In this document: in pieces, positions 2,729-3,388 of the stretch
Numbering within the stretch: the first letter of the stretch is position 1
Layout of the letters: every line of letters starts with the position of its first letter
From: Alphaproteobacteria bacterium
Lineage (GTDB): Bacteria; Pseudomonadota; Alphaproteobacteria; Rhodobacterales; Rhodobacteraceae
DNA: 24,441 nucleotides
Assembly (NCBI GenBank): GCA_003695135.1
Contig: RFIR01000027.1
Location: forward strand, 1-24,441
Reading direction: 5' to 3'
The notes under the pieces: generated by a model
What the model saw: the letters and a program-made list of their open reading frames with translations, nothing else
The model's database searches: none
What the model was told of the DNA's origin: nothing
Position numbers and translations under genes: made by a program

Positions 2729-3388
2729 TCACAGGGCCGAGGCGCGCGGGGTGATCTCGCGCCGGATCTGCTCGCCGACCGAATGCTTGGTCCGCTCCAG
2801 ATCGTATTCCAGCTGCAGACGTACCCAGAAATCGCCGGCGGTGCTGAAATACCGCGCCAGCCGCAGGGACATCTCGACGCCCACCGGTGACTTGCCGGCC
2901 AGCACATCGTTGACCCGGCCTTCGAGCAGCCCGGTTGCACGGGCCAGCTGTGCGGCGGAAATGCCAAGCGGTTTCAGATACTCCTCCTGCAGGACCTCAC
3001 CGGGGGTCGGGCACAGGAGCACCGGCTGGGCCTCCGCCTCGCCCGGTGCAACCAGCTGGATCTCGGTGGCGAAACCCGCCGCCTTCCACGCCTCGATGCC
3101 GCCTGCCATGTGGATGACGTCCGCGTGCCCCTCCTTCAGCAGCATCCGGCCCGCCGCCTCGGAGCGTTTGCCGACCGCGCAATGCAGGACGACCTTCTTG
3201 TCGGGAAGGGCAGGAAAGAATTCGGGGTCGAAATTCGACAATGGCAGCAAGAGCGCGCCGGCGATGTGTTCCTTTTCGTATTCGGAGGTCTCGCGGACAT
3301 CGACCAGCACGATCTCGTTGCGGTCCAGCCAATCCTTGACCTGCCTCACATCGACGGCCTGCACGGTTGCATGCGTATTCTCGGGCAC
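2729..3388 (-). CDS. Rhodanese domain fused to a C-terminal HigA/VapI-type XRE HTH domain (219 aa)
   Basis: GTG at 3388 with AAGGGA 8 nt upstream; the ORF-track start at 3460 is probably too long. Rhodanese motifs VDVRETSEY..HIAGA, active loop HCAVGKRS and MAGGIEAW. Then PTPGEVLQEEYLKPLGISAAQLARATG..VNDVLAGK..EMSLRLARYF..FWVRLQLEYDL, typical of HigA antitoxins. Confidence 0.88.
   Translation of the reverse strand: MPENTHATVQAVDVRQVKDWLDRNEIVLVDVRETSEYEKEHIAGALLLPLSNFDPEFFPALPDKKVVLHCAVGKRSEAAGRMLLKEGHADVIHMAGGIEAWKAAGFATEIQLVAPGEAEAQPVLLCPTPGEVLQEEYLKPLGISAAQLARATGLLEGRVNDVLAGKSPVGVEMSLRLARYFSTAGDFWVRLQLEYDLERTKHSVGEQIRREITPRASAL

Follow-up and report, generated by a model that had tools for sequence, protein, structure and literature searches.

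The open reading frame (ORF) at positions 2729-3388 (minus strand, stop codon included) of the window analysed here, a 24,441-nucleotide contig (RFIR01000027.1, assembly GCA_003695135.1) from an alphaproteobacterium of the family Rhodobacteraceae, encodes a 219-amino-acid protein in which a rhodanese domain is joined to a helix-turn-helix (HTH) domain of the HigA antitoxin family. Public sources name its homologues only as "HigA family addiction module antitoxin". We find that the fusion gene lacks a toxin partner and that, across genomes, it travels almost exclusively with dsrA of the rDsr (reverse dissimilatory sulfite reductase) system. We are confident that the product is no antitoxin but an accessory protein associated with dsr. 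As to mechanism, we tentatively favour a stand-alone two-domain protein, accessory to the rDsr sulfur-oxidation lifestyle of marine Alphaproteobacteria, that would act as a one-component sulfane-sulfur sensor, i.e. a persulfide-gated regulator.

The rDsr-bearing members of the Roseobacter group and of related Alphaproteobacteria are emerging as important sulfur oxidisers of oxygen-poor coastal sediments. A family annotated as an antitoxin that tracks dsr almost one-to-one across genera, and even across classes, is a testable candidate for a sensor or an overlooked relay component in these organisms, and its misleading annotation can now be corrected. If our reading is right, a toxin-antitoxin DNA-binding module has been recruited into core metabolism, and the fusion could serve as a genomic marker of rDsr sulfur oxidation.

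The fusion protein and its two domains

The ORF starts with a GTG codon, preceded 8 nt upstream by a Shine-Dalgarno-like word (AAGGGA). A longer version from a GTG at 3460 is possible; the start at 3388 is backed by public gene calls and by orthologues, and an identical 219-amino-acid protein is already in public records. It is the sole gene of its kind, and the sole HigA-family match, in the source genome (84% complete).

The N-terminal rhodanese domain spans residues 15-104 (3077-3346, minus strand; Pfam PF00581, E 5.5e-20), and its fold matches those of YgaP, GlpE and other single-domain rhodaneses in structure comparison. Direct reading of the sequence places the codon of the catalytic Cys70 at 3179-3181, within the six-residue loop CAVGKR. 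The domain thus combines the two properties by which rhodaneses are recognised, namely the fold and a catalytic cysteine in a six-residue CXXGXR loop, and it shares both with YgaP, GlpE and PspE of Escherichia coli. The regulator that partners YgaP is a protein apart, YgaV, of the ArsR type. In contrast to YgaP, which is membrane-anchored and whose rhodanese domain has been solved in S-sulfhydrated form (5HBO), the rhodanese of the fusion is joined to a domain of DNA-binding type.

A variable linker of residues 112-124 (3017-3055) separates the two domains; it has low per-residue confidence (pLDDT) in the AlphaFold2 (AF2) model and a column entropy of 2.13 bits. It is followed by a second cysteine, Cys126 (3011-3013), at the position of the histidine in the canonical HigA N-terminal motif 'HPGE', and by the HigA-family XRE-type HTH domain (residues 127-202; 2783-3010; NCBIfam TIGR02607), all on the minus strand. 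The fusion scores 80-82 bits with TIGR02607 against a cut-off of 47.7, and its HTH domain is 39-41% identical to Pseudomonas aeruginosa HigA, with a template-modelling (TM) score of 0.81-0.87 depending on the target (Foldseek). The initial annotation had described a single ORF joining an intact rhodanese to a complete HigA-type HTH, with cysteine codons at exactly these two positions, and the profile matches (PF00581 E 5.5e-20; TIGR02607 80 bits) and the sequence bear this out.

Compared more widely with HigA antitoxins (P. aeruginosa HigA/PA4674, PDB 6JPI, 6LB3 and 7CSY; P. putida GraA, 6F8H), the last 95 residues adopt the same five-helix XRE-type fold at 35-41% identity and carry the family signature PGE..L, RLARYF.T...FW..LQ..YDL. 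The fusion differs from these antitoxins in having no HigB, in its N-terminal rhodanese, and in the replacement of the 'HPGE' histidine by cysteine in most members. Structure comparison found no solved structure that combines a rhodanese with a HigA domain, and no description of the architecture was found in the literature, in line with the initial annotation, which did not recognise it as characterised.

Absence of a toxin partner

HigA antitoxins are recognised by a HigA-type XRE HTH domain, by an adjacent gene for a HigB/RelE-type toxin and by their small single-domain size (about 95-105 amino acids). The first of these is present in the fusion, and the other two are lacking. The 196-nt intergenic region upstream of the gene (3389-3584, minus strand) holds no RelE/HigB-like ORF, and the HigB family PF05015 has no match in the source genome at its 84% completeness. 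In 80 loci of fusion-bearing species, tblastn detected no HigB-like sequence within ±5 kb (0 matches), whereas a canonical HigA query matched all 80 of the same loci; the annotated gene lists of 10 contig neighbourhoods contain no HigB either. The claim that the gene has no toxin partner therefore holds in the window, in the genome and across these loci. True HigBA pairs do occur in this bacterial family and are built differently, with a HigB of 93-105 amino acids followed directly by a HigA of about 100. The canonical HigA proteins used for comparison (from G287 and G011) are about 100 amino acids long, against the 219 of the fusion with its N-terminal rhodanese. Canonical HigB-HigA pairs at L039:1468-2099 and L040:1064-1647, in two dsr-positive genomes without the fusion, provided the contrast.

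Extent of the fusion family

When 5.8 billion clustered proteins were searched, more than 120 near-full-length homologues came back, of 213-236 amino acids and at 63-80% identity. A profile-free scan of 1.84 billion representatives of 50% clusters added only about six further full-length clusters (45-55% identity), so the family is narrow. A scan in which each prokaryotic species was represented by a single genome found the same architecture at 80 species loci, so it is present in at least 80 species, and the two-domain protein is kept at 45-78% identity across orders. Since the architecture recurs in all these homologues and loci, the junction between the domains is real. An assembly artefact, against which the initial annotation had advised a check, is excluded.

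The carrier species are mostly Rhodobacteraceae, many of them represented by metagenome-assembled genomes (MAGs). Cultured carriers include Ruegeria marisflavi, R. aquimaris, R. marina, R. marisrubri, Seohaeicola saemankumensis and Jhaorihella thermophila, as well as Tropicimonas, Marimonas arenosa, Aliiroseovarius subalbicans, Sinisalibacter lacisalsi and Maritimibacter. Outside the family, the fusion occurs in MAGs of Hyphomicrobiales, Anderseniella, Rhizobiaceae-labelled, Thalassospiraceae, Rhodospirillales and Kiloniellales lineages, and in two genomes of Granulosicoccus. The copies in the latter (Gammaproteobacteria; L236, L240) are 60-62% identical to the Rhodobacteraceae protein, which suggests transfer between classes; dsrA is present in these genomes too.

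Three minor observations concern related sequences and expression. In five proteins of about 390-412 amino acids (P0177, P0179, P0190, P0209 and P0237), four HigA-like stretches stand in tandem. An orthologue (about 95% identity) is covered by contigs that were assembled from RNA libraries of a Ruegeria-like organism; with lengths of 5-9 kb these may represent DNA carry-over and were not used here. Short metatranscriptome contigs hint weakly at transcription, and were not used either.

Coupling to dsrA across genomes

The distribution of the gene was compared with that of dsrA in 301 genomes of the source family (G000-G300), about one per genus. The full-length fusion is present in 15 of these. 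For dsrA, 19 genomes exceed the curated cut-off and one more has a partial match (20/301 overall). Every one of the 15 carriers is dsrA-positive, and the fusion is absent from all 281 dsrA-negative genomes. A relative from the same genus as the source genome (95% complete) has neither. The rDsr system is patchy in the family as a whole, with dsrA in 19-20 of 301 genera, and the source genus itself includes one species with it and one without.

A species-wide set, which includes the carriers of the family sample and every non-Rhodobacteraceae lineage, gave the same picture: 76 of 78 carrier genomes match dsrA (72 above the cut-off, four cut by contig ends), or 77 of 79 when Seohaeicola is added. 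Among the dsrA-positive carriers are genomes of Granulosicoccus, Hyphomicrobiales, Thalassospiraceae and Kiloniellales and Rhizobiaceae-labelled ones. The two carriers without dsrA are MAGs, one of them only 2.0 Mb in size. The dsrA gene of the window itself scores 571 bits.

On an RpoB tree of 150 family genomes, a single-gene phylogeny, the fusion requires at least 11 changes and dsr at least 13, so the carriers are scattered and do not form one clade. Eight independent pairs that differ in dsr could be drawn across well-supported branches: the fusion differs in the same direction in five to six of them, in the opposite direction in none, and does not differ in two to three. A sign test on these pairs is borderline (p about 0.03-0.06). 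Despite the single-gene tree and the borderline strict test, the coupling is replicated and one-directional. It can also be seen at a single chromosomal site, between acpP and fabF, where the dsr-positive genus G080 has the fusion and its dsr-negative sister G142 has an empty gap of 190-250 nt. The site is empty as well in G127, the dsr-negative sister of the dsr-positive G263, whose acpP-fusion segment and fabF lie on different contigs. In both G142 and G127, acpP directly adjoins fabF.

One feature by which persulfide-responsive transcription factors are recognised is that they are associated, at the genome level, with genes for the oxidation of sulfide or sulfur, and the fusion shows this phyletically (77/79). 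The initial annotation had proposed a link to dissimilatory sulfur oxidation from local proximity and had suggested a survey of dsr co-occurrence. The survey, with 77 of 79 carriers positive for dsrA and 0 of 281 dsrA-negative family genomes carrying the fusion, makes the link much stronger than could be seen from the sequence alone; it rests on phyletic coupling and not on local synteny. As far as can be told, this strict coupling to rDsr has not been reported.

Gene context and synteny

The immediate context of the gene is clade-specific and largely unrelated to sulfur. In 25 of the 80 species the fusion sits between acpP and fabF in the housekeeping cluster fabD-fabG-acpP-fabF-mltG. This insertion marks one large subclade (25 loci among L219-L272, e.g. 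L248:4551-6977). About nine of the 80 loci, all in one subclade, have the fusion behind paaABCDE; a link to paa was rejected, as the adjacency is confined to that subclade and PaaB is in any case present in 138 of the 301 family genomes. In other contexts the fusion adjoins a TauE gene, extra single-domain rhodaneses, or an AraC/DJ-1 gene. The initial annotation had pointed to the placement of the fusion between two adhesin genes, and this part of it is not supported: RTX or von Willebrand factor A (VWA) neighbours occur in 0 of 80 other loci, so their presence is incidental and an adhesin link was rejected.

Fusion and dsr genes are usually found on separate contigs or at a distance of hundreds of kilobases from each other. 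Within the family sample, only the source window has both on one contig, and synteny is restricted to this window (at 7-20 kb) and to two Hyphomicrobiales MAGs (L253 and L257), in which the fusion is close to tusA and dsrA. The order in L257 is soxA, soxB, a gene for a YeeE-type sulfur transporter, then tusA and the fusion in divergent orientation, a dsrC-like gene and, after another 2 kb, dsrA-dsrB-dsrE. The divergent arrangement of tusA and fusion is one that regulators and their targets often have, and it also fits a partner in a sulfur relay. The compact island in this MAG (L257:458-10688) additionally holds a gene for a TauD-family dioxygenase, between the dsrC-like gene and dsrABE.

A candidate sulfane-sulfur sensor

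In the mechanism that we propose, Cys70 of the rhodanese would accept a persulfide from cytoplasmic sulfane sulfur, for instance sulfur borne by thiosulfate, polysulfide or TusA/DsrE2. In most members the sulfur would then be handed to, or bridge with, Cys126 at the first turn of the HigA-type domain, which would alter the shape or pairing of a HigA-like dimer and hence its binding to DNA, at operators that would be clade-specific. We favour a sensor because of the architecture, the intact CAVGKR loop, the absence of HigB, the phyletic coupling to dsr and the occasional synteny. A bolder version, which we regard as possible but still less secure, is that the protein represents a new class of sulfane-sulfur-sensing transcription factor, in which a HigA module has captured a rhodanese as sulfur acceptor in place of the toxin, and that it would be the missing switch by which rDsr sulfur oxidation is turned on or tuned. 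Thiosulfate strongly induces the dsr genes of rDsr-bearing Ruegeria under low oxygen, in a study that names no regulator (10.1101/2024.06.14.599071).

Such a protein would resemble SqrR, BigR, SoxR and sHdrR (ArsR family), CstR (CsoR family) and FisR in the proposed use of cysteine sulfuration as a switch for a regulator of sulfur oxidation (PMC10451225, PMC5823870). Most members of the fusion family have two conserved cysteines. The fusion would differ from these regulators in three respects. The known persulfide sensors have ArsR, CsoR or NtrC-type folds, to which the HigA/XRE-type HTH is unrelated; their thiols reside on the HTH protein itself, whereas the sensor of the fusion would be a complete sulfurtransferase domain; and the fusion is usually not encoded beside its presumed targets.

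The two cysteines are not equally conserved. The motif [HY]CA[VI]GKRS around Cys70 is present in all 81 family members compared, and no part of the protein is more conserved than this loop and helix 4 of the HigA domain. Cys126 is present in 68 of the 81, is invariant in 25 close homologues and in the main Rhodobacteraceae clade, and where it is kept lies 54-60 residues from Cys70. The two dsr-adjacent Hyphomicrobiales copies have serine at this position, and the most divergent non-Rhodobacteraceae members mostly have histidine or another residue; these divergent members keep the canonical basic recognition helix of HigA.

Several observations weigh against a persulfide-gated regulator. Cys126 is absent from 12 of the 81 members, including the two dsr-adjacent copies, so it is not essential to the core function of the family, and a two-cysteine switch looks like a later refinement. 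The surface that would contact DNA also differs widely between clades. Helices 2-3 of the HTH are as variable between clades as the linker (entropy 2.1-2.2 bits), and their net charge is negative in most members (median -1), in keeping with an HTH that is often acidic. Of the seven residues with which P. aeruginosa HigA, solved on its operator DNA (PMC6987408), contacts that DNA, four differ in the window protein and three are identical (S144, R150 and D161), and of the latter R150 and D161 vary across the family. Searches for inverted repeats, for dyads in 76 non-redundant upstream regions and for enriched 6-mers found no family-wide operator, yielding only clade-specific terminator hairpins after acpP and -35-like TTGCA words. 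Within clades helix 3 is well conserved, and DNA binding is plausible as judged from the sequence. The AF2 model is confident for both domains and uncertain in their mutual placement (predicted TM score 0.53); a homodimer prediction scored 0.63 against 0.45 for the best control, but no verdict was drawn and it was not used.

Two further points weigh against this reading. The fusion is missing from four dsrA-positive family genomes; three of these are at least 99% complete, and two have only canonical HigBA pairs. The fusion is therefore not required for rDsr. In the window, moreover, a gene for an ArsR-family repressor of the BigR/SqrR type (8911-9294, minus strand) already adjoins dsrE2-tusA, from which it diverges, so the fusion need not be the dsr regulator; if it is a regulator, it may control something besides, or other than, the dsr operon. 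The repressor matches NCBIfam NF040642 (BigR) at E 2.4e-24, below the cut-off of that profile, and an ArsR/SmtB subfamily match exceeds its own. It is a conventional candidate for the persulfide sensor of the sulfur relay or of the dsr locus. One of its cysteines lies in the stretch LILCQLL and another in a C-terminal YCA. Of the initial proposal, a persulfide-gated regulator derived from an antitoxin module, the fusion, the intact active site, the lack of a HigB partner and the sulfur link are supported. The adhesin placement is not, and the case for gated DNA binding is weakened by the members without Cys126 and by the variable, often acidic HTH surface.

Alternative explanations

The most serious alternative, to which we give a lower probability than to the sensor, is that the protein is a sulfur-relay enzyme, the rhodanese of which passes sulfane sulfur to TusA/DsrE2 or to DsrEFH-DsrC and the HigA domain of which is a scaffold for dimerisation or docking, without sequence-specific DNA binding. 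In other rDsr oxidisers a rhodanese accompanies tusA-dsrE2, and a relay enzyme would give the fusion that role; the window has no rhodanese gene beside its own dsrE2-tusA. Dissimilatory sulfur oxidisers are described in which a rhodanese is associated with carriers of the TusA and DsrE type (PMC11094781). The pattern of conservation suits a relay too: the active-site loop and helix 4 are conserved most, helices 4 and 5 form the dimer interface of P. aeruginosa HigA (PMC6987408), and the DNA-facing helices are conserved least and mostly acidic. In L253 and L257 the fusion is the direct neighbour of tusA, which recalls the rhd-tusA-dsrE2 set of rDsr and sHdr oxidisers; some members are flanked by extra single-domain rhodaneses, and strict coupling to dsr would suit a pathway component as well as a regulator. 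On the other hand, the fusion rhodanese differs from that set in carrying an HTH and in being normally encoded far from tusA-dsrE2. A mere scaffold would also not account readily for the conservation of helix 3 within clades, the canonical basic recognition helix of the most divergent clade, or the retention across orders of a whole HigA fold scoring above its cut-off. In nearly all genomes the gene stands outside the dsr operon, with a putative promoter of its own. Finally, the thiosulfate-induced rhodanese of Ruegeria has a CASGXR motif, unlike the CAVGKR of the fusion; a knockout mutant of that rhodanese had no phenotype (10.1101/2024.06.14.599071).

A link to dsr that is ecological or historical and not mechanistic is less probable still. 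The protein would then respond to reactive sulfur or some other stress, or detoxify it, in sediment habitats that are sulfidic and low in oxygen, and would be kept or lost together with dsr according to niche. This would agree with the lack of linkage between the two in nearly all genomes, with housekeeping or unrelated contexts (acpP-fabF in 25 loci, paa in about nine), with the four dsr-positive genomes that do without the fusion and with the borderline outcome of the strict sign test. It is harder to reconcile with the complete absence of the fusion from the 281 dsr-negative family genomes, with a coupling that holds across classes, and with direct synteny with tusA, a dsrC-like gene and dsrAB in two MAGs.

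Its above-cut-off TIGR02607 match and its public names would make the protein a HigA antitoxin, either orphan or trans-acting, or else what is left of a decaying toxin-antitoxin system. This is extremely improbable, given that no HigB was found in the source genome (84% complete) or within 5 kb in the 80 loci, and given the stable chromosomal positions inside housekeeping clusters, a two-domain protein conserved across orders, and true HigBA pairs of the same family in which a HigA of about 100 amino acids stands right behind HigB.

The genomic neighbourhood in the window

Profile annotation of the surroundings agrees with their earlier description as adhesin-type genes on both sides of the fusion, a sulfur relay and an rDsr operon. 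Upstream of the fusion lies a gene for an RTX/integrin-beta-VWA protein (3585-6701), and downstream one for a VWA protein (1-2043). The sulfur carriers dsrE2 (9373-9897; NF047629 above cut-off) and tusA (9936-10160; E 8.5e-17) are encoded on the plus strand (9373-10160). A complete rDsr operon occupies 10209-23302 on the minus strand and comprises, by NCBIfam and Pfam matches, dsrA, B, E, F, H, C, M, K, L, J, O, P, an unnamed gene and dsrN. Within it, between dsrP and dsrN, is a thymidine-phosphorylase-like gene (Glycos_trans_3N; 11582-12913, minus strand), and directly upstream of dsrA is an ORF of 219 amino acids (23472-24131, minus strand) with no family match.

The intergenic region upstream of the fusion was studied by an inverted-repeat scan and by comparison of upstream regions. 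It contains a perfect hairpin with a 12-bp stem at 3478-3506, followed by TTGACC-N17-CATCCC (about 3451-3479), which is common to the Ruegeria aquimaris orthologue. This element is no more than a putative promoter of the fusion gene itself, because a consensus sigma-70 scan gave no promoter. Rfam had no match in positions 1-10500 of the window, which include the unusually long non-coding gap of 685 nt past the fusion gene (2044-2728). Part of this gap (2525-2600) is AT-rich, with a TTGACA word (2531-2536) and a near-palindrome, GCAATT-GGTT-AATTGC (2580-2595), and may be a promoter or operator of the downstream VWA gene.

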